The notes beneath the pieces are model-generated. The model was given only the letters and a program-made list of their open reading frames with translations, was not told the origin of the DNA and ran no database searches. Made by a program: the position numbers and the translations under genes. From assembly GCA_034432935.1 (NCBI GenBank), contig DAOUBD010000012.1, positions 17,344 to 81,343 on the forward strand: 64,000 nt of DNA, given 5' to 3'. This document shows, in pieces, positions 3,566-54,793 of this stretch. The number at the start of each line of letters is the position of its first letter. Position 1 is the stretch's first letter. Source of the DNA: Dehalococcoidia bacterium (GTDB lineage: Bacteria > Chloroflexota > Dehalococcoidia > SM23-28-2 > RBG-16-64-32).

Positions 3566-5971
3566 GTGGGAGCGCTGACCGGCATCAGGGTGGTCGAGCT
3601 GGGCGAAATGGTCTCTGCGCCCTATTGTGCGCGCCTCTTTGCCGATTTTGGCGCCGAGGTCATCAAGGTAGAACCGCCGCAGGGAGACGTCGCGAGGCGC
3701 TGGGGGCCGTTCCCTGGTGACCAACCCCACCCTGAGAAGAGTGGACTGTTCTTCTTTCTCAATACGAACAAGCGCAGCATCACCCTCGACTTTCAAGACC
3801 AGAATGACCGGCAGCGGCTGCTCCGTCTGCTCGAGAGGGTAGATCTTTTTGTAGAGAACTATTCGCCTCAGCAGATGCAGGCATGGGGACTTGACTATCC
3901 GTCCCTTTCCAAAGTCAATCCGAACCTGGTGATGGTCTCCATTACCCCCTTTGGGCAGAGCGGCCCATATGCCTCTTGGCGCGGATATGACCTGAACGCC
4001 TTCCATCTCTCGGGCGCGGGCCACCGTTACTGCGGTCACCCTGATCGCGAACCGCTGGAATACGGCACCTTCGCCGCCGATTTCTTTGGGGCGATAGCCG
4101 GTGCTGCCTGGGGCCTGGCAGCCCTCTGGGGCCGCCAAAACGTGGGGGGAGGCCAACATGTCGATGTCTCCTGCGCTGAGGTGATCGCCGCCGTCTTTGT
4201 GGGCGGCCAGAACATTGGCGGATACGCGCAAGATGGAGTCTTCGAAAGGCGGCTGGGCACGGGCATGCCACTGGCTGCACCTGGAACCATCCTCCCCTGC
4301 AAGGACGGTTACGTCTGGGTCCTAGCCTTCGAGCCTGACCAATGGAAGGGGCTGGCCAGGGCCATGGGTGACCCGGAGTGGATGCACCTAGAGGAGTTCT
4401 TGGACCTCTTCTATCGCAAGCAGAACGAAGACGCTATCTATCCCCTCCTCAGGCAGTGGACGGCCGGCCTGACCAAACAGGAGATCATGGACCTCTGCCA
4501 GGCCAACGGCTGCCCTAGTACCGCAGTGCTCTCTGTGGAGGAGGCCGTTCAGCATCCTCACGTCCAGCACCGGCGCTACGTGGTCACCGTCGATCACCCC
4601 GTCCTCGGGCCAACACCGACGCTCGGCGCGCCGGCCAGGCTCTGGGGCGACCCCTCGGGGCCGGTTCGTGGCGCGCCGCTCTTGGGCCAGGATAACTCCA
4701 GTCTGCCCCGATATCTGGAGATGGCACCGCCAGCTCTTGCGCCGTCTTCCGACGGTGGCCGGTTGCCCCTCGAAGGCGTTCGCGTGCTGAACTTCGGTTG
4801 GGTATGGGCCGGACCCATAGTCGGCCAGACCCTGGGTTTTCTGGGCGCAGAGGTGTACAAGGTGGAATCACGCGCCAGAATCGACCTCAACCGGTTGTTC
4901 CCACCTTTTGCGGAAGGCATTGAGGATCCGAATAGGAGCCTCCAAAACCATGCGGGTTGGGCTGGGAACGGCAGCATCACCTTGGATCTGAGAAAACCGC
5001 AGGCGCAAGAGCTGGCAAAGAAGCTGGTAGCCAAGAGCGACGTGGTCATTGAGAACTTTGCGCCTGGAACGATGGAGCGCTTGCACCTGAGTTTTTCCGA
5101 GTTGCGTGCCGTCAACCCGCGCCTGGTGATGTTGTCCATGCCAGCTGCCGGTCTTTCTGGGCCGCTGAAGGACATCCGAACCTATGGCGTCACTCTTACG
5201 AGCCTCACTGGGTTGGACAGCATCACCGGATATCATGGCGGCCCGCCGGTGCCCATGGAGAACGCTTTTGCCGACCCCTACAATGGGATCTTGGGCGCGT
5301 TCCTCGTTCTAGCTGCCCTTCACTACCGTGACCAAACGGGGGAAGGTCAGCACATCGACTACTCTCAGTTGGAAGGGGTCATGCAGATGATGGGCCCCGC
5401 TGCCATGGACTTCTTCTCTAACGGGCGAGTAGCTGCTACCTTGGGCAACCGGCATCCTCTAGGTGTGGGGGCTCCCCATGGAGTTTTCCCTTGCGCCGGC
5501 GATGACCGGTGGATCAGCATAGCGGTGCTTCGGGAGGAAGAGTGGCTCGGCCTGGTCGAGGCGATGGGTCGTCCCGCCTGGGCCCTCTCGCAGCGCTTTG
5601 CCAGCGCCAGTGCCCGGATTGCCAACATCGAGGAGCTTCACGAGCGGCTCTCAGCTTGGACGAGACAGCAAGACAATCGCGACCTAGCTGACGCTTTACA
5701 GCGCTGCGGGGTGCCTGCCGCGCCGGTCTCCAACGTAGCGGACCTTTATCACGATCCCCACTTCAGGGCTCGCGGCACCTTTATCGAAGTACGCCACTCG
5801 TTGGGATTCAATGAGACCATCTACGGCCCCTACGTCAAGCTGAGCCGCACATCGCCGCGCATCCGTCCTGGGCCAGCCATTGGCCAGGACAACGAGGGCG
5901 TTTTCCTTGGCCTCCTGGGTCTCGACCGGGAGGAGTACCAGCGCCTGGTGCGCGACGAGGTGATCTACTAG
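3566..5971 (+). CDS. Tandem (two-domain) CaiB/BaiF class III CoA-transferase
   Basis: Two complete CoA-transferase III domains (LTGIRVVELG...; LPLEGVRVLNFG...). Both keep an Asp at the catalytic position (ADFFG, ADPYNG). GTG 3566 follows AGGAGGAG. Confidence 0.9.
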   Translation: MGALTGIRVVELGEMVSAPYCARLFADFGAEVIKVEPPQGDVARRWGPFPGDQPHPEKSGLFFFLNTNKRSITLDFQDQNDRQRLLRLLERVDLFVENYSPQQMQAWGLDYPSLSKVNPNLVMVSITPFGQSGPYASWRGYDLNAFHLSGAGHRYCGHPDREPLEYGTFAADFFGAIAGAAWGLAALWGRQNVGGGQHVDVSCAEVIAAVFVGGQNIGGYAQDGVFERRLGTGMPLAAPGTILPCKDGYVWVLAFEPDQWKGLARAMGDPEWMHLEEFLDLFYRKQNEDAIYPLLRQWTAGLTKQEIMDLCQANGCPSTAVLSVEEAVQHPHVQHRRYVVTVDHPVLGPTPTLGAPARLWGDPSGPVRGAPLLGQDNSSLPRYLEMAPPALAPSSDGGRLPLEGVRVLNFGWVWAGPIVGQTLGFLGAEVYKVESRARIDLNRLFPPFAEGIEDPNRSLQNHAGWAGNGSITLDLRKPQAQELAKKLVAKSDVVIENFAPGTMERLHLSFSELRAVNPRLVMLSMPAAGLSGPLKDIRTYGVTLTSLTGLDSITGYHGGPPVPMENAFADPYNGILGAFLVLAALHYRDQTGEGQHIDYSQLEGVMQMMGPAAMDFFSNGRVAATLGNRHPLGVGAPHGVFPCAGDDRWISIAVLREEEWLGLVEAMGRPAWALSQRFASASARIANIEELHERLSAWTRQQDNRDLADALQRCGVPAAPVSNVADLYHDPHFRARGTFIEVRHSLGFNETIYGPYVKLSRTSPRIRPGPAIGQDNEGVFLGLLGLDREEYQRLVRDEVIY

Positions 5972-5994
5972 GCTCCGTGATTTCGATGTGCTTC

Positions 5995-6062
5995 TGTGCG
6001 GTATTGCCCTACACAATATGGGGCGCTACCGGACAGACGGGTTTGCAAAATGGCAATAACGT
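5995..6062 (+). promoter_or_regulatory. Tandem palindromic operator plus -10 box (site 1 of 7), pointing into non-coding DNA
   Basis: TGTGCGG-tattg-CCCTACA / TATGGGG-cgcta-CCGGACA / 21 nt / TAACGT. Same architecture as six other intergenic sites. Confidence 0.65.
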
Positions 6063-6166
6063 GGTAGATGCGTGCGCTCCCGTGCGCCGCAGCCAGGTAG
6101 TCAATGTGTGCCCCCAACCCTTGGCTCAGCCCTCCGACGGAGCGGCCAGCGGGAGTTGCCTCGCGC

Positions 6167-6240
6167 CGGCGGCCGGCGGTCCCAGCGGCGCCAATCCTAG
6201 CGTGCCTGTCTCAATAACGGGCGCCCACTGCCGGCCGCCG
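6167..6240. repeat. Long inverted repeat (14-bp outer stem plus inner GGCGCC stem) between convergent genes
   Basis: 6167-6180 CGGCGGCCGGCGGT pairs with 6227-6240 ACTGCCGGCCGCCG (one G-T). GGCGCC at 6187-6192 and 6220-6225. No U-tract on either strand. Confidence 0.7.
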
Positions 6241-6250
6241 CAACACGCCC

Positions 6251-6706
6251 CTACGAGCCTTCTCTCGCTGACTTCCACCCTTCCGTGATGGGAACGAAGT
6301 GGGACATCCGTAATCGCCGGCGCGCGAACTTCCACCGGCCGTTCTCGCGTATGTATTCGTCCTCGTACGCCCCCGCCCCAATCATCGCCTTGCCGTCTAC
6401 CGTGGCCCTGAGGTCCAGGTAGCAGGTGCCCCTCGCCCGGTCGCCGTCAAGCTCGATGACGTGGTTGTGGACAAAGGGCATGAACTCGCCCTGCAGCAGG
6501 CCCTGGTAAGATTCCACTAGGGCCTCCCGGCCGACGATTGGAGGACGGTCGTCCAGCTCCATGCTAGCGTCTTCCGCGAAAAGCTCTATGGCTCCTTCTA
6601 CATCTCGCCGCCAAATGCAGTGGGCGTAACGGATCGCGAGGTCCCGTATTGCTTCCCGGTCCCTTAGCTCTTGGACGGCTTGCTGGAGATCCTCCGGGCG
6701 CATCAT
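6251..6706 (-). CDS. SnoaL/NTF2-like fold protein (LinA/BaiE-like family)
   Basis: DREAIRDL..RY, HNHVIELDGDRARG, Y.DEY.R.NGRWKF..R pattern. Start at ATG 6706 or 6703. Confidence 0.85.
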   Translation of the reverse strand: MMRPEDLQQAVQELRDREAIRDLAIRYAHCIWRRDVEGAIELFAEDASMELDDRPPIVGREALVESYQGLLQGEFMPFVHNHVIELDGDRARGTCYLDLRATVDGKAMIGAGAYEDEYIRENGRWKFARRRLRMSHFVPITEGWKSAREGS

Positions 6707-6754
6707 GAAACCCTTTGCCTCTGGCCGGTGCGGTTTTCGCATCGGCCGGGGCCG

Positions 6755-6783
6755 AATCTACCCCCGGACCGCCCTTGCGTCAA
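6755..6783 (-). promoter_or_regulatory. Sigma70-type promoter for the SnoaL gene
   Basis: Minus strand TTGACG-N17-TAGATT. Confidence 0.6.
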
Positions 6784-6832
6784 GCCCGCGTGACCCGCGG
6801 TCTGCTACACTGAGTCGCCAGGAGGGACGAAG

Positions 6833-7252
6833 GTGAACGAAGCCCGGCTGAACATGGTCCAGCAGTCGCCCGTTTGGCAGACCCTCGGTGCTCAAGTCAT
6901 CGAGGCGAAAGATGGCCACGCCGTGGTCAAATACCGGGCCGGGGAGGACTGGCTGATACCCTCGGGCCGTGTGCAGGGCGGCTTTCTCGCCGCGATGATC
7001 GACTCCTGCATGGCGGCCGCGATAGTTGCCAGCCTAGCGCCAGGTCAGTGGCATACTACCATTGAGATGAAGGTGAACTACTTCCGCCCAGCACCTCCCG
7101 GCGGCTTTACCGGTCAATCCGAGGTGGTCTGGAAGGGGAAGAACATCGTTTATGCGGAGGCCACCCTGTCTCATGAAAGCGCAGGGCTCGTGGCCAAAGG
7201 CGTCTCGACATGTATGGTGCTACAGGACCGGAGCCCAGGCAGAGGGGAGTAG
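6833..7252 (+). CDS. PaaI-family hot-dog thioesterase
   Basis: GRVQGGFLAAMIDS...TTIEMKVNYFRP. GTG start after AGGAGG. Extended -10 TGcTACACT at 6803-6811. Confidence 0.9.
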   Translation: MNEARLNMVQQSPVWQTLGAQVIEAKDGHAVVKYRAGEDWLIPSGRVQGGFLAAMIDSCMAAAIVASLAPGQWHTTIEMKVNYFRPAPPGGFTGQSEVVWKGKNIVYAEATLSHESAGLVAKGVSTCMVLQDRSPGRGE

Positions 7253-7270: not shown

Positions 7271-7690
7271 CTACGGCGTAACGGGTACCGGCATCTGTAC
7301 CGTGAGCCGAACTGCGGTTGTAGGGCCGTCCTCCGTAGAGAACGTCACGTCCGCGTCCACCAGCCGGCAGCCATTGGACTCTCTGACGCCTGTCACCACA
7401 CCTTCGGCGGTAAGGGTGCGGTTGATGTAGTTCGACCCGCGCATCGCCACCTCCAGACGTCGCAAGAAGGCATCGTTGCCGAACCAGTGGCAGGCCGCCC
7501 GGCCGGCAAACGCCTGGAGGAACATCGTGTTGAAGAAGATCGTCTCGGCTCCGTTCGCCCGGGCCGCCCGCTCGTCGTGGTGCACCGGGTAGTAGTCTCT
7601 CGTACCCGCCACGGCTTGGACAGCCCGCCTCAGGGTCAGGGGCAGGCTGATAGGAGGCAGCTTATCGCCCTCTTTCCACTCCTGGGTCAT
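7271..7690 (-). CDS. MaoC-family (R)-enoyl-CoA hydratase subunit (ChsH1-like)
   Basis: TRDYYPVHHD hydratase-2 motif (D-x4-H), EGDKLP N-terminus. Confidence 0.85.
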   Translation of the reverse strand: MTQEWKEGDKLPPISLPLTLRRAVQAVAGTRDYYPVHHDERAARANGAETIFFNTMFLQAFAGRAACHWFGNDAFLRRLEVAMRGSNYINRTLTAEGVVTGVRESNGCRLVDADVTFSTEDGPTTAVRLTVQMPVPVTP

Positions 7691-8196
7691 GCTGCGCCTC
7701 CGCTCGTTGCTGGCCGGTAGATGAATAGCGTGAAGGTGTGGGTCCCTACCACTTGCCCGTACTGGTTGCGGAACGTGTCCTTGGTGGACACGAAGTGCCC
7801 TGTGCCCAGGCGGGTGGTTTTCTCCTCGCTTATGGAGCTGATCTGAGTGGTAACGGTCAGGGTGTCGCCGTACCTTAGCGGGAGGAAGTACTCCTGGACG
7901 GAGTTGACAGCGATGGTCGCGGTGCAGCCCTCGATCTGGAGTTTGCCCACAGGGTTCTCGCGTTGGACCTCAGGCCACACGGGCGCCATACCCCATGTGA
8001 AGAGCATGGCGGGCGGCGCGAACTTCCCCTGGAGCCACGTTGTCCGGGCGTAGGCGTCGTCGAAGTAGATGGGGTTCGGGTCCTCTACCATCTCGCACCA
8101 GAACCGCGCCATCGCTTCGTTGACGGCATATGGGGCCGGGCGGGGTTCTGTCTCTTGTCCAATCAGGGCCCGTTGCTCGGGAGTGATGACCGGCAT
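7687..8196 (-). CDS. MaoC_dehydrat_N / FAS1-like dehydratase subunit (ChsH2 N-domain-like)
   Basis: VNEAMARFWCEMVEDPNPIYFD...APPAM...KTTRLGTGHFV. 4-bp overlap with the downstream partner gene. Confidence 0.85.
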   Translation of the reverse strand: MPVITPEQRALIGQETEPRPAPYAVNEAMARFWCEMVEDPNPIYFDDAYARTTWLQGKFAPPAMLFTWGMAPVWPEVQRENPVGKLQIEGCTATIAVNSVQEYFLPLRYGDTLTVTTQISSISEEKTTRLGTGHFVSTKDTFRNQYGQVVGTHTFTLFIYRPATSGGAA

Positions 8197-8222
8197 CCTA
8201 CCTCCTTTGCCCCAACCCTTGT

Positions 8223-8981: not shown

Positions 8982-9181
8982 ATCATCCGCCTGCGTAGCA
9001 TCGCCAAGCAGGCGGCCCTCTTTCCACAGCTTGCGCGTCATATCCGGCCGCCACAAATGTCCCGTGTAACCGCTTCCTACGTCAAGCCGTCGGTGGTTGC
9101 GGCGTTGCCGTAGAATCCACTGTGCCGGCATAATAATCAGGGCGCTGGCCAAGGGCCCGGGGGCAACAGAATCGATAGCGC

Positions 9182-25444: not shown

Positions 25445-25629
25445 CCTCTGTGGGCCTGGCGTGTCCCGATCTCAGGCTCCGGGAGCGGACCAACGCGCAG
25501 CGCTGAGTCCTGCCACCGAACTGTAGAGGATAGAAGTGCAGAATAGCCGCCAACGCCACCTCGGCCAACCCCCAGCGTCGCATGGAGCCGTACGCGAGGT
25601 TCTTGTTTTCCGTCTTCAGGAGGTAACGG

Positions 25630-44245: not shown

Positions 44246-44392
44246 GGCCTTCTCCTTTGGAAGCCTTCTCCCTGCTTCTGAGCGCGGGTCTCCGCTGCCA
44301 TCAGATGCGATTCATCCTCGGCCCCCCTTTGAGTGCTGGGCTTGACTCGCCATCAACGCCAACCGATCCGGACTGGTAGCGAAGTTTGTCCC

Positions 44393-49698: not shown

Positions 49699-50925
49699 AT
49701 GACGGACCCGCCCGCACCTTCGACGGCTGGCCCGCTCAGTGGCCTCAGGGTGGTGGAGGTAGCCACCATGTTAGCGGGCCCTTATGCCGCGACGCTCTTG
49801 GGTGACCTGGGAGCCGACGTGATCAAGATCGAGTCGCCGCGTGGAGACGACAGCCGCCATCTCGGCCCGGAGAAACAGGGCGAACGCGGGCCATTCCTCA
49901 GCCTTAACCGCAACAAGCGTGGCGTCGTCCTGCGCCTCGACGACCCCAAAGGACAAGAGGCCTTCGCCCGCCTTCTGCGCACCGCCGACGTCCTGATCAC
50001 CAACGTTCGGGAGCCCGCCCTCACCAACATGGGCCTCTCCTACGAAGCGGCCTCCCGCCACCGGCCGGACATCATCTGGGCCGGCGTGACAGCCTTCGGG
50101 CCGGACGGCCCCTATGCGGGCCGTCCGGGGATCGACTTCCTAGCCCAAGGGTACGCCGGCCTCGTGTCTCTCAACGGTACGGGCGAAGGGCCCCCCGTGC
50201 GGGTCACCGTGCCCCTAGTGGACGTGATGACGTCTCTTCTGGTCTGCTCCGCCGTGCTGGCAGCCCTGCACGAACGCGCGGCCAGCGGCAAAGGGCAGCG
50301 TATAGACGCCTCCCTCTTAGATGCCCTCCTCCATGCCCAAGGCACAGGGCTGACCAACTACTTCCTCACAGGGTACGTCACCCCCAGAGTGGGCAACCGC
50401 AGCCCCTACTTCGCCCCTTCGGGGGTGTACGAATGCGCAGACGGCAAGAGCCTCTGCATCACTTGCCCCGGCGAAAAGTTCTTCCGCAATCTCTGCCGGG
50501 CACTAGAAGTGGACTGGGATCGCGATCATCGTTTCGAGTCCATCGAGTCTCGTTTGGAACACGAGGACGAACTAGACGCTCTCTTGGCCCAGCGCTGCCG
50601 CCAATACGCCAGAGACCAACTTCTGGCGCGCCTGATCGCCGCCGACGCCATGGCCGCCCCGGTGAACGAAATCCCAGACGTCGCGCGGGACCCTCAGGTC
50701 TTGCACAACCAGATGGTCGTGGATGTACCCCACGCGGCGCTGGGCACCGTGCGTATCACCAACGTGCCCGTGCGACTTAGCCGCACGCCTGGCAGCGTTC
50801 GTCGTGGTCCGCCGGTCCTTGGGGAACACACAGTTGAGGTGCTTGCCGAGATCGGTTATTCAGCCGACGAAATAGACGCCCTGTGCGCCCAAGGAGTGGC
50901 TCTCCGGCCGAGTCAGGCGCTCTGA
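49699..50925 (+). CDS. CaiB/BaiF CoA-transferase (paralog of 36013-37224)
   Basis: GPLSGLRV, NRNKRG, PLVDVMTS. Confidence 0.92.
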   Translation: MTDPPAPSTAGPLSGLRVVEVATMLAGPYAATLLGDLGADVIKIESPRGDDSRHLGPEKQGERGPFLSLNRNKRGVVLRLDDPKGQEAFARLLRTADVLITNVREPALTNMGLSYEAASRHRPDIIWAGVTAFGPDGPYAGRPGIDFLAQGYAGLVSLNGTGEGPPVRVTVPLVDVMTSLLVCSAVLAALHERAASGKGQRIDASLLDALLHAQGTGLTNYFLTGYVTPRVGNRSPYFAPSGVYECADGKSLCITCPGEKFFRNLCRALEVDWDRDHRFESIESRLEHEDELDALLAQRCRQYARDQLLARLIAADAMAAPVNEIPDVARDPQVLHNQMVVDVPHAALGTVRITNVPVRLSRTPGSVRRGPPVLGEHTVEVLAEIGYSADEIDALCAQGVALRPSQAL

Positions 50926-51563
50926 CGACCGCCCGCCCGAGCTGCCAGGTCCACTGGTTCCACAAAACCGGCCCGCAGGGCCTCGATAAGGTCTCGTTCT
51001 CCAGTCACCGGCCGCAAGAACCTTGTCGCGCAGCGGCCCAGGGCGGCCTTGGAGTGCGCGTCGCTGCCGCCTATGGCCGGCATCTCCAAGGAGCGGGCGA
51101 TGGCCCGCAGCAACTCGGCTGACCCCAGGTCGTCGCCGTTAAGCACCTCCAGCGCGTGGTACAGGCGGTGAGCGTCGGACCACGGCGCCTGGCCCTGCCG
51201 ATGCCGCGTCGGGTGGGCCAAGGCCATGGCCCCACCCTCCTCCTCGACGATGCGCCGGAGCCGGTATACGTCGTACATCTCTGGGTGAAAAACCTCGAGT
51301 CCGAAGACCAGCACGTGCCCTGCCTGCGTGCCCACCTCCATGCCGCGCAAGACGGGGATACCGTGCCGTTCTGACAGCTCCCGCGCAGGGCCAGCGCCCC
51401 AGACCTGGTTGTGCTCCGTAAGGCAGAGGGCTGCCATGCCCAGCGCAATGCTGAGCCGCGCTGCATCGTCGGGCGTCAGGGCGCTATCGGAGGAGAGGGG
51501 GCAGGTGTGGACGTGAAGATCGATCAGATACTCTTCGGACCCCGCGCCGGCTCCAGACGTCAT
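50913..51563 (-). CDS. PHP-domain metallohydrolase
   Basis: DLHVHT, TEHN, GMEV, AHP, EVLNG, GGSDAH. ATG 51563 overlaps the etfA stop. Confidence 0.88.
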   Translation of the reverse strand: MTSGAGAGSEEYLIDLHVHTCPLSSDSALTPDDAARLSIALGMAALCLTEHNQVWGAGPARELSERHGIPVLRGMEVGTQAGHVLVFGLEVFHPEMYDVYRLRRIVEEEGGAMALAHPTRHRQGQAPWSDAHRLYHALEVLNGDDLGSAELLRAIARSLEMPAIGGSDAHSKAALGRCATRFLRPVTGERDLIEALRAGFVEPVDLAARAGGRQSA

Positions 51564-52541: not shown

Positions 52542-53357
52542 CTATTGTATGACTCGCTCAGCGCGCAGACGCTGCACCAGCTTGGCGGCGATGTCAGCCG
52601 GCGAGGCGCCATCGATGAACTCGCAACTCCCCTGGACGGCGGGCACGTACTGCCGGACGAGGACAGCCCGCGGCCGCACAGCTTCGGCGGTTAGTTCGAG
52701 GGAGTCCAGGGTAAAGATCTCGGGTTGCATCCTTCGCGCTTGGATGCTGCGTGCCGCTGTCGGATACCTGGGCTGGCCCAGCTCGCTGCTAACGGTGACA
52801 ACGGCCGGCAAGTCGGCCTCCACCGTCTCGTCCCCGTTGGGCGTGACCCTCGTCACCCGCACCCTGGCCGCTCCGTTCTCGGGATGGACTGACACCTCCC
52901 GGGCCACCGTGATTACCGGCATGTCAAGTATTTCGCCCAAGACCGCCGGCACCACCCCCTGGTCATCGTCAGATGCCTGCCGGCCGCAGAGGATGAGATC
53001 CGCGCCACCCGTCTGGCGCACATAGGCTGCTAGAATCTGGGCTATCGCCGGGCAATCGAGGAGCGTTGCGTCGGCCGATATGGCAGCGATGGCATCGGCG
53101 CCCAGCGCCGCGGCGTGGCGCAGCACCTGCGCCGGGTCGGGGCCCACGGAGACCGCCGTGATGGTGCACTCCAGGCCCGCATCACGTAGGCGCAGTGCGG
53201 CCTCCACCGCCTGCTCGTCGTAGGCGTTGATCAGCGCCGGCACGGCCGCCTGGGTGATGCTCTTGCCGTCGTCGCCGATGGTCAGCTTGCCGGCCAAGGC
53301 GTAGTTGTTGACGGCATCGGGGTCCAGCACTTCCTTCACGCAAACGACTATCCGCAT
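52542..53357 (-). CDS. etfB: Electron transfer flavoprotein beta subunit
   Basis: MRIVVCVKEV.DP, NAYDEQAVE, CGRQASDDDQG, PRYP. Confidence 0.95.
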   Translation of the reverse strand: MRIVVCVKEVLDPDAVNNYALAGKLTIGDDGKSITQAAVPALINAYDEQAVEAALRLRDAGLECTITAVSVGPDPAQVLRHAAALGADAIAAISADATLLDCPAIAQILAAYVRQTGGADLILCGRQASDDDQGVVPAVLGEILDMPVITVAREVSVHPENGAARVRVTRVTPNGDETVEADLPAVVTVSSELGQPRYPTAARSIQARRMQPEIFTLDSLELTAEAVRPRAVLVRQYVPAVQGSCEFIDGASPADIAAKLVQRLRAERVIQ

Positions 53358-53677: not shown

Positions 53678-54793
53678 TCAGCCGGCGGCGCCTACGGCAG
53701 GATCACCCAATAGGCTTTCGAAGGCCTCCTGGGCCTCGCCCACCATGTCGAAGATGATCTGGCGCACGGGCTTCATCGAGTTCACGAAGTGGACCCCTTG
53801 GCCCGCCGCCTCCGTCATGAAAGAGGTGATGTTGTTCTCCATGACGGACTGTTGGACCTCGGCGAACAGGAGAAGCTGGTATGGCGCCGGCAACGGCTCC
53901 GGCGCCCCCGGCGCCTCCCACTCTTCGTGCCATTGGCTCCTGGTGGTGCGCATCGTGAACCCCGATATGCAGCGCGACCAGACGGCGTCCTCGGTGTCGG
54001 CGTTGAGAATGATCTCCTTGATGGGCATCTCCTTGTCCGACTCACGGGATGCCAGCCACACGGTCCCGCACCAGACCCCATCGGCACCCAGGGCCAAGGC
54101 TCCGGCCAGATGCCTGCCCGTGGTCACCCCGCCAGCCGCGATCACCAGCTTGTCGCCCGCCAACTCCCGTACCAGCGGCACTATGGAGAAGGTGCCGATG
54201 TTGCCGGTGTGGCCGCCGGCATCGAAGCCCTGGGCCACGATGGCGTCGACACCGGCGTCGAGTTCCCGTTTGGCTTGGCGGGGCTTGCCCACCATGCCCC
54301 ATAGCATTACGCCACGCGAGTGAGCGGCCTCGATGATGAAGTTGGGGCTGCCCAATCCGAAGGCCAGCACTGGCACCCGCTCCTCCAGGACCACATCTAC
54401 CTGCTTGCGAGGCACATCTTGGGTCATCCATCCGAGCTGGTAAAGCTGAGGCGGGTTCCGAGGTTCTGGAATGTTGTGCCGGCGCTTCATGTCCTCGATG
54501 AACTTGCGGTGCGTCTCGGGAATCTGCGCCCGGAGGTCGTCGATGGTGCCCGAGGGAGGCACCGAAGCTGGTAACACCAGGTCGATGCCGAAGGGCTTGC
54601 TGCCTATGCGCTCTCGGATCCATTTGATATCGGCAGCGATCTCATCGGGCGACCGGTGGGTCTCGCCCAGGACGGCAAAGCCGCCGGCGTTTATGGCCGC
54701 CACCGCGACGTCTTTGCAGTGGGTGAAGGCGACTATGGGGAACTCGATCCCCAGGGTGTCGCATAGCCTTGTGTGAAGCGGGTCTTTCGCCAC
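53678..54793 (-). CDS. Nitronate monooxygenase-family FMN protein (FabK/IpdC-like enoyl reductase possible)
   Basis: LCDTLGIEFPIVAFTHC, GFDAGGHTG, AAGG...G, GVWCGT. Confidence 0.88.
   Translation of the reverse strand: MAKDPLHTRLCDTLGIEFPIVAFTHCKDVAVAAINAGGFAVLGETHRSPDEIAADIKWIRERIGSKPFGIDLVLPASVPPSGTIDDLRAQIPETHRKFIEDMKRRHNIPEPRNPPQLYQLGWMTQDVPRKQVDVVLEERVPVLAFGLGSPNFIIEAAHSRGVMLWGMVGKPRQAKRELDAGVDAIVAQGFDAGGHTGNIGTFSIVPLVRELAGDKLVIAAGGVTTGRHLAGALALGADGVWCGTVWLASRESDKEMPIKEIILNADTEDAVWSRCISGFTMRTTRSQWHEEWEAPGAPEPLPAPYQLLLFAEVQQSVMENNITSFMTEAAGQGVHFVNSMKPVRQIIFDMVGEAQEAFESLLGDPAVGAAG

Follow-up and report, generated by a model that had tools for sequence, protein, structure and literature searches.

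Several trans-acting small RNAs (sRNAs) are embedded in a regulon and made under the control of the regulon's own factor, as is the case for RyhB with Fur, SgrS with SgrR, GcvB with GcvA and Spot 42 with CRP. Type I 3'-UTR-derived sRNAs such as DapZ and MicL start from a promoter of their own, located where an upstream gene ends, and use a terminator common to both transcripts, while a further group, the C-rich-loop sRNAs of Gram-positive bacteria, is represented by RsaE/RoxS in Bacillota and 6C RNA in Actinomycetota. Riboregulation in Chloroflexota, and in Dehalococcoidia especially, is almost unexplored, and a search of the literature (full text) found nothing on Dehalococcoidia sRNAs or on sRNAs in steroid-degradation clusters. 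Here, we analysed a gap between two convergent genes in 64 kb of Dehalococcoidia DNA (the window, i.e. the whole 64,000-nt stretch) and, on balance, consider it probable that this gap harbours a plus-strand gene for a small non-coding RNA of ~175 nt, a reading in which we include its mode of action and a hydratase mRNA as target. What we infer from sequence is that the RNA is transcribed, from which strand and between which ends, what it targets and in which direction the effect goes.

The gap comprises 279 nt (5972-6250) and is bordered on its left by a plus-strand gene for a fused double family-III CoA-transferase, which has its stop at 5971, and on its right by a minus-strand gene for a SnoaL_4 protein, which ends at 6251. 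On the plus strand, the next gene encodes a 4HBT thioesterase; it begins at 6833, on the far side of the antisense SnoaL gene, and comes with a TACACT -10 box and a Shine-Dalgarno (SD) sequence of its own. Gene and ORF maps thereby confirm how the original prediction had described the gap, its borders and the distance to the next plus-strand gene. Its additional claim, that other convergent junctions here are shorter than 20 bp or overlap, applies to most of them (6-19 nt or overlapping in the ORF map) but not to a second long junction of 145 nt (50926-51070), at which a CoA-transferase-like gene (49699-50925, plus strand) meets an ORF (51071-51466, minus strand) without any Pfam match. As for the SnoaL gene (6251-6742), its close homologues are all 150-152 aa long, and for this reason its true start probably is the Met at 6706, not the longest-ORF start at 6742.

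What sets the gap in relation to known regulon-embedded sRNAs is an operator/promoter unit at 5995-6062 on the plus strand. Words from the gap that recur in several intergenic regions (GGTATTGCCCTACAC and CCSGACAG) led to an alignment, column for column over ~70 columns, of the gap unit with the intergenic units 22847-, 25376+, 44461-, 49596-, 54930- and 55022+. The seven have a common layout (GTAGGG-N5-CCCTACAC, ~15 nt, CCCGACAGAC, CAAAA, 6 nt and the -10 hexamer) and positions A2 and T6 of the hexamer are invariant among them. In the gap unit, the distal palindrome is found at ~5996-6014 (GTGCGG-TATTG-CCCTACAC) and the proximal site at ~6016-6038 (..TGGGGC-GCTA-CCGGACAGAC), followed by CAAAA at 6046-6050 and the -10 box TAACGT at 6057-6062; it thus possesses palindrome, CCCGACAGAC site, CAAAA, A2/T6 hexamer and fixed spacing like the rest of the family. 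With a position weight matrix (PWM) trained on the six other units only, i.e. with the gap unit left out, the latter scores 50 bits and nothing else on both strands of the 64 kb exceeds 26 bits, the 26-bit match being the palindromic mirror of the gap unit itself, so that the window holds exactly seven such units including that in the gap. With 0.7 bits, its -10 box is weaker than those of the six other units (9-12 bits), and the spacing of its proximal site is 1 nt shorter, likewise in unit 54930-. Another guess at the operator, TTGC-N6-GCAA, was not enriched (18 matches vs 20.7 expected) and was rejected. Since the gap promoter aligns with six operon promoters and scores 50 bits against a background of at most 26, it is, as judged from its motifs, demonstrably a genuine and full member of the family. 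The operator sites are centred near -65 and -44 with the -10 box at a fixed distance and no recognisable -35 hexamer; two upstream sites without a -35 would correspond to the geometry of an activator-dependent promoter. Because the -10 box lies at 6057-6062, the spacing puts the putative transcription start site (TSS) at ~6068-6070. Both the rightward-facing operator/-10 unit and this start position had been proposed in the original prediction, and the seven-unit alignment together with the leave-one-out matrix upholds them.

The six other units precede catabolic operons, whose first genes code for an enoyl-CoA hydratase, an acyl-CoA dehydrogenase, a solute-binding protein, a luciferase-like monooxygenase and a CoA-transferase or, in the sixth case, correspond to gene 53678-54793; the gap unit alone faces gene-free DNA. 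Among the six, units 25376+ and 44461- are followed by long leaders of ~185 nt (25445-25629) and ~145 nt (44246-44392), measured to the longest possible start codons of the first genes, and these could contain cis-regulatory RNA or unannotated small ORFs. Elsewhere in the window, 692 nt between the ETF-alpha gene and the next genes (52613-53304) are free of any ORF of at least 80 codons.

To look at relatives, we gathered contigs via close homologues of the SnoaL protein and the CoA-transferase and found five further distinct sequences that carry the element: L008, L010/L007, L001, L002 and L003. Of these, L001 is an NCBI MAG (GCA_034433815.1, Dehalococcoidia bacterium), L002, L008 and L003/L004 are Logan assemblies and L010 and L007 are JGI metagenomes. 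In all six sequences, the window included, promoter, a body of ~180 nt and a GC hairpin occur as one unit, with nhmmer E values between 1e-53 and 1e-59 for the close relatives and of 2e-16 for L003, and the gap between the same two converging genes measures 280 nt in L001, 259 nt in L002 and 279 nt in L010. The RNA body (6063-6240) is 86-92% identical to the window in L010, L001 and L002 and 98% in L008, the closest relative in this comparison, and the promoter (5995-6062) is 78-88% identical in the former three and 90% in the latter. For the whole flanking genes the corresponding values are 74-84% and 92%, and for their third codon positions 48-64% and 83-87%. The -10 region (ATAACGTG) is invariant in 6/6 sequences, and near-invariance spans operator, body and hairpin, with conservation stopping at the hairpin base (6240). 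Poorly conserved are the 23-nt spacer from the CoA-transferase stop codon to the operator (5972-5994; 50-71% identity in L010, L001 and L002, 58% in L008), in which a consensus terminator scan found no terminator-like site, and the 10 nt past the hairpin (6241-6250; 50-70% in the three, 90% in L008), which is why we regard the region as a constrained block with sharp edges, operator on the left and hairpin on the right. These comparisons among six aligned sequences show promoter and body to be under strong purifying selection.

L003 is informative in that a divergent NuoF-like gene replaces the CoA-transferase upstream, and still it retains operator unit and body in their place beside the SnoaL stop codon. 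When scored with the window-trained matrix, the RNA promoters of L010, L001, L002 and L003 reach 39-50 bits and are the only matches in these loci (22 kb in L010). In L003, the RNA promoter and the NuoF-like gene lie in a common divergent region of 140 nt (5640-5780), and the promoter of the NuoF-like gene shows GCAAAA-N6-TACAAT; the palindromic operators may hence serve both directions there. Outside the six sequences, the element is absent at L009 (68%) and L011 (71%), which are relatives by SnoaL and CoA-transferase, respectively, and a search with the SnoaL protein of L003 yielded no new close relatives. Scanning genome contigs for conserved 20-28-mers retrieved only L006 (= L001) and a chance match in Streptomyces (L005), and the same scan of metagenome contigs gave one chance match inside an ORF (L012); both scans missed known carrier contigs, the JGI ones evidently being absent from the metagenome collection. 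Neither blastn nor nhmmer detected a paralogue of the RNA elsewhere in the window.

These data bear on whether the promoter is a relic of a rearrangement or of a deleted gene that has no present function, as the original prediction had envisaged among its options. True, it is the only unit of seven without a downstream gene and has the weakest -10 box. But the length of the gap (259-280 nt) and its sequence are kept among relatives that are ~40-50% diverged at synonymous sites, no gene is found there, and neutral DNA would not remain 86-92% identical at such divergence; a single, recently spread horizontal segment is argued against by the divergence of the flanking genes. With promoter and body conserved above the flanking genes and the relatives' gaps gene-free, we consider the relic or lost-gene reading refuted and give it hardly any credence; the synteny check instead favours an sRNA.

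Is the element coding? Six-frame translation of the six sequences identified no reading frame on either strand that is open with a start codon in 6/6. The ATG at 6068 and its 10-codon frame (MRALPCAAAR*) are present in the window, as is the 37-codon frame from the ATG at 6104, and a leaderless mRNA for the former, or for another micro-ORF, possibly as part of a dual-function RNA, had been among the suggestions made from the window alone. In its favour, the ATG coincides with the predicted TSS, and the frame (MRALPxAAAR) is kept in five sequences with synonymous changes at two codons (CGT/CGC and GCA/GCG/GCT) and one variable residue (C/H/R). Against this, L002 has GTG as its start codon, in L003 the stop is lost to a 1-nt insertion, the bases of the micro-ORF also form the 5' hairpin, whose pairing is preserved by the substitutions, and 150 conserved nt downstream would be left unexplained. 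The other micro-ORFs fare no better: the 37-codon frame has AAG for ATG and no other start in L002 and ends early in L001, and a 103-codon frame, whose product finds nothing in Pfam, is interrupted by stops in L001, L002 and L003. So to our minds a micropeptide is very improbable, and the alignment shows the element, at the level of its reading frames, to be non-coding with no conserved ORF. Taken together, promoter, non-coding body and terminator-like hairpin are conserved as one unit in six sequences, and to a degree that exceeds the neutral rate of the flanking genes, which lends support to the co-regulated sRNA of ~170 nt that the original prediction had listed.

The predicted sRNA would span 6068-6245 on the plus strand (~175 nt), with the 5' end taken from the -10 spacing and the 3' end from the hairpin base and the limit of conservation. 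It would begin with a stem-loop, SL1 (6070-6087, plus strand; GCGUGCG-CUCC-CGUGCGC), that starts at the predicted TSS and carries CUCC(C) in its loop; 41/42 alignment cells are paired, 5/7 pairs vary, and one pair appears as U-A, C-G or U-G. RNAalifold, run on the six sequences, also predicts a long-range helix on the plus strand between GCUCCCGU (6076-6083) and GCGGGAGU (6149-6156), with 47/48 cells paired and one pair seen as C-G, U-G or U-A. The two are mutually exclusive and both are compatible with the alignment. SL2 (6096-6131, plus strand), again from RNAalifold, is formed by GGUAGUCAA and UUGGCUCAGCC (6096-6104 with 6121-6131) and exposes a C-rich apical loop (UGUGUGCCCCCAACCC); it contains the stretch most conserved across the six sequences, GUGUGCCCCCARCCCUUGGCU, and two invariant U-G pairs specific to the plus strand. 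Within its loop, we propose 6112-6123 (CCCCAACCCUUG) as a putative seed. SL3 (6167-6240, plus strand) is a branched, terminator-like hairpin with an 11-bp G+C stem (6167-6177 with 6230-6240), an inner GGCGCC/GGCGCC stem and an invariant unpaired motif, CGUGCCUGUCUCA, at 6201-6213. Its inverted repeat, with arms of 14 nt (6167-6180 and 6227-6240) that are 93% complementary, agrees with the hairpin first noticed in the window, and the stem is kept in 6/6 sequences with one G-U.

As to how far these folds are supported, pairing reaches 97-98% in the helices and some double changes occur, but covariation in SL1 and the long-range helix did not stand out among six fairly similar sequences, in that 168-244 of 500 shuffles do as well. 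Folding of the single sequence (6063-6260) is no better than that of its shuffles (z -0.86), and the other strand does not beat its shuffles either. A cmscan of 5800-6900 on both strands against Rfam 15 (E<=10) assigned no family to the region, the sole match being noise outside the element (SNORD105, 15 bits vs a cut-off of 45), and neither the window nor the relatives have a downstream gene on this strand that a riboswitch or cis-regulatory leader might control.

Which strand is used is pertinent to the notion that the functional strand is the minus one, where the element would form a structured 3' UTR in the SnoaL mRNA, with the plus-strand promoter unrelated or otherwise used. Such a role would fit the constant linkage of the element to the SnoaL 3' end, and the consensus fold is slightly more stable on the minus strand (-72 kcal/mol vs -67 on the plus strand). 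It conflicts, though, with a hairpin right after the SnoaL stop, which should end that transcript and leave 6063-6166 unexplained, and with an operator/-10 unit that points into the element from a conserved, fixed distance. In addition, ~27 cells in the plus-strand helices are G-U and become A-C mismatches on the minus strand, a count that is biased in so far as the helices were predicted on the plus strand. We therefore hold the 3'-UTR reading to be quite improbable. Promoter orientation and distance, the extent of the constrained block from promoter to hairpin and the G-U cells are, in our view, the reasons why the plus strand is favoured.

Either strand lacks a U tract 3' of SL3, which is followed by GCAACACGCCCC, and the terminator consensus scan makes no call; SL3 thus has the G+C hairpin of an intrinsic terminator without its U tract. 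Hairpins without U tracts are reported to terminate in high-G+C bacteria, and SL3, at a distance of 10 nt from the stop of SnoaL, may act as terminator for the transcripts from both sides. The missing U tract is also of relevance for a purely local function, in which the RNA would be a cis-acting antisense or termination module for SnoaL that operates by duplex formation, RNase cleavage or transcriptional interference, since read-through into SnoaL is conceivable. Antisense action on SnoaL had likewise been among the options of the original prediction. Consistent with such a function, the RNA and the SnoaL stop codon are 10 nt apart in 6/6 sequences and the linkage to SnoaL is kept in L003 despite the changed other neighbour. 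Nonetheless, any overlap with SnoaL would leave out the best-conserved part (6063-6166, with the invariant C-rich loop), which would be needless for antisense action only, and conservation breaks off at the foot of the hairpin without extending into the gene. We therefore rate a SnoaL-directed cis module as unlikely and favour an sRNA that most likely acts by base-pairing in trans, a mode suggested by its conserved loop and the candidate target described below.

When the RNA was compared with the window and the relatives' loci by short-word BLAST, one match outside the RNA locus recurred. The 12-mer CCCCAACCCTTG (6112-6123), which is part of the invariant loop, is found again in the same orientation at 8210-8221, and because the genes at this site are on the minus strand, the hydratase mRNA carries a perfect 12-nt complement, CAAGGGUUGGGG (8210-8221, minus strand). 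This candidate target site is at -25 to -14 relative to the start codon of a gene for the N-subunit of a MaoC-type hydratase (7687-8196, minus strand; 169 aa, PF13452 in the relatives' gene tables). It directly precedes, on the 5' side, the hydratase SD (AAAGGAGG) and falls within the 26 nt that separate the SDR gene from the hydratase N-subunit gene in an SDR-hydratase operon. The orthologous site is kept over 12 nt in L010/L007, 13 nt in L002 and 15 nt in L001, with variation in the adjacent intergenic bases, so that the complementarity is conserved in four lineages, window included. Among matches of at least 11 nt, only the hydratase site both involves the C-rich loop and has a counterpart at the orthologous place in relatives; the others are mostly G+C-rich stem sequence and recur nowhere. 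Of dinucleotide-shuffled RNAs, 5.7% match one or another of the window's 52 start regions over 12 nt or more, so that the hydratase match is marginally significant within the window. A duplex-energy scan of four RNA segments against the 52 start regions revealed no enrichment over background, full-length duplexfold returned unrealistically long duplexes, and L003 lacks the site in its 8 kb, though the RNA is kept with a CCCCCAGCCC loop. All in all, we propose the hydratase start region as the sRNA target tentatively, at clearly less than an even chance.

The absence from L003 of a candidate site is one of the points that would suit an RNA that binds a protein or a small molecule, be it as sponge, decoy or sensor, and pairs with no mRNA. 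The ~175 nt are highly conserved, with invariant motifs predicted to be unpaired (CUCCC, GCCCCCAACCC and CGUGCCUGUCUCA), and this exceeds what a single seed needs; moreover, the two mutually exclusive 5' structures both fit the alignment. On the other hand, the RNA matches no Rfam family, riboswitch or protein-binding RNA, a switch would have no downstream gene to control, and the conserved complement in the hydratase mRNA would have to be a coincidence. To us, a ligand-binding role is about as improbable as the SnoaL-directed module, and we retain base-pairing in trans as the preferred mode.

Based on our analysis, the sRNA would be made when the regulator of the steroid-type catabolic regulon is active, since its promoter belongs to the operator family of the cluster. 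The transcript would start at ~6068-6070 directly with the 5' hairpin, present the invariant C-rich apical loop (GUGUGCCCCCAACCC) and end at the strong G+C hairpin (6167-6240), which probably also ends the converging SnoaL transcript as well as read-through from the upstream CoA-transferase operon. Its loop would then pair over 12-15 nt next to the SD of the hydratase gene 2 kb away. In the divergent promoter region of the SDR-hydratase operon (8982-9181), there are ordinary TATAAT-like boxes and no operator, and pairing would tie this operator-less operon to the regulon after transcription.

Compared with the known systems, the gap RNA resembles RyhB, SgrS, GcvB and Spot 42 in being a short non-coding gene whose promoter contains the operator of the regulon and in having a conserved, probably single-stranded seed as well as a terminal hairpin. 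Like Spot 42 on galK, it has its candidate target where an internal cistron of a polycistronic mRNA starts. It differs from the four in that it has no sequence or Rfam relationship to them and no U-rich tail, and in that its host is an uncultured member of the Dehalococcoidia (Chloroflexota). With type I 3'-UTR-derived sRNAs it has in common a promoter ~23 nt past a co-directional stop codon with no terminator between the two, an arrangement seen in the window, L010, L001, L002 and perhaps L008 but not in L003; in addition, the region of the gap RNA would also be the 3' UTR of the CoA-transferase operon, with the hairpin as common terminator. In contrast to the DapZ/MicL type, the promoter is past the stop codon and not inside the ORF, and the 3'-UTR position seems not to be essential, as the RNA is free-standing in L003, where the neighbour is divergent. 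Similar to RsaE/RoxS and 6C RNA, the gap RNA has conserved C-rich motifs in predicted loops (CUCCC, GCCCCCAACCC) and a high-G+C host, and these motifs could pair with G-rich ribosome-binding regions. Different from them, it has no Rfam match, three stem-loops in ~175 nt and a candidate site that adjoins the SD instead of being on it. Given the lack of an Rfam match and the loss of the 3'-UTR position in L003, the gap RNA is, by these comparisons, a member of none of these sRNA families.

Further context comes from the left part of the window (341 to ~17,000), where the RNA promoter is the only operator unit found with the matrix; nor does the syntenic 22-kb counterpart in L010 (1-22409) contain another. 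The genes of this part code for SDRs, a ferredoxin-FAD enzyme, CoA-transferases, SnoaL, a thioesterase, a MaoC pair and ACADs, and include an Ltp2-like gene. A coupling role for the sRNA is attractive because this part is devoid of other operator units. It may be speculated that the sRNA is the post-transcriptional arm of a steroid-responsive regulon and couples operator-less side-chain beta-oxidation operons to its regulator by pairing next to the hydratase ribosome-binding site; in this extended form, we think the idea rather unlikely. Ten small or unassigned ORFs of the window include no regulator gene by Pfam. In L010, the first SDR gene of the syntenic cluster is preceded, at a distance of ~2.7 kb, by a PadR-family regulator gene (3570-4199; PF03551 + PF10400). 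This gene is located immediately beyond the stretch matching the window, has no adjoining operator unit and is a candidate for the regulator.

Were the coupling role to be true, steroid-type catabolism would have its first riboregulator in the gap RNA, and Dehalococcoidia their first trans-acting sRNA with a defined regulator and target. Even as an ordinary sRNA, it would be a clean new family for Rfam-type curation. Since these organisms are uncultured, their regulatory logic must be read from sequence, and a regulon promoter, a conserved body with sharp limits and a candidate target that is likewise conserved and lies in the same cluster are a combination rarely obtained from metagenomes. 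With all three at hand, the candidate is directly testable in a heterologous reporter. For the biology of these bacteria, the locus offers a handle on the control of an anaerobic-type steroid degradation cluster and suggests that operator-less operons of the cluster may be tied to its regulon through RNA.
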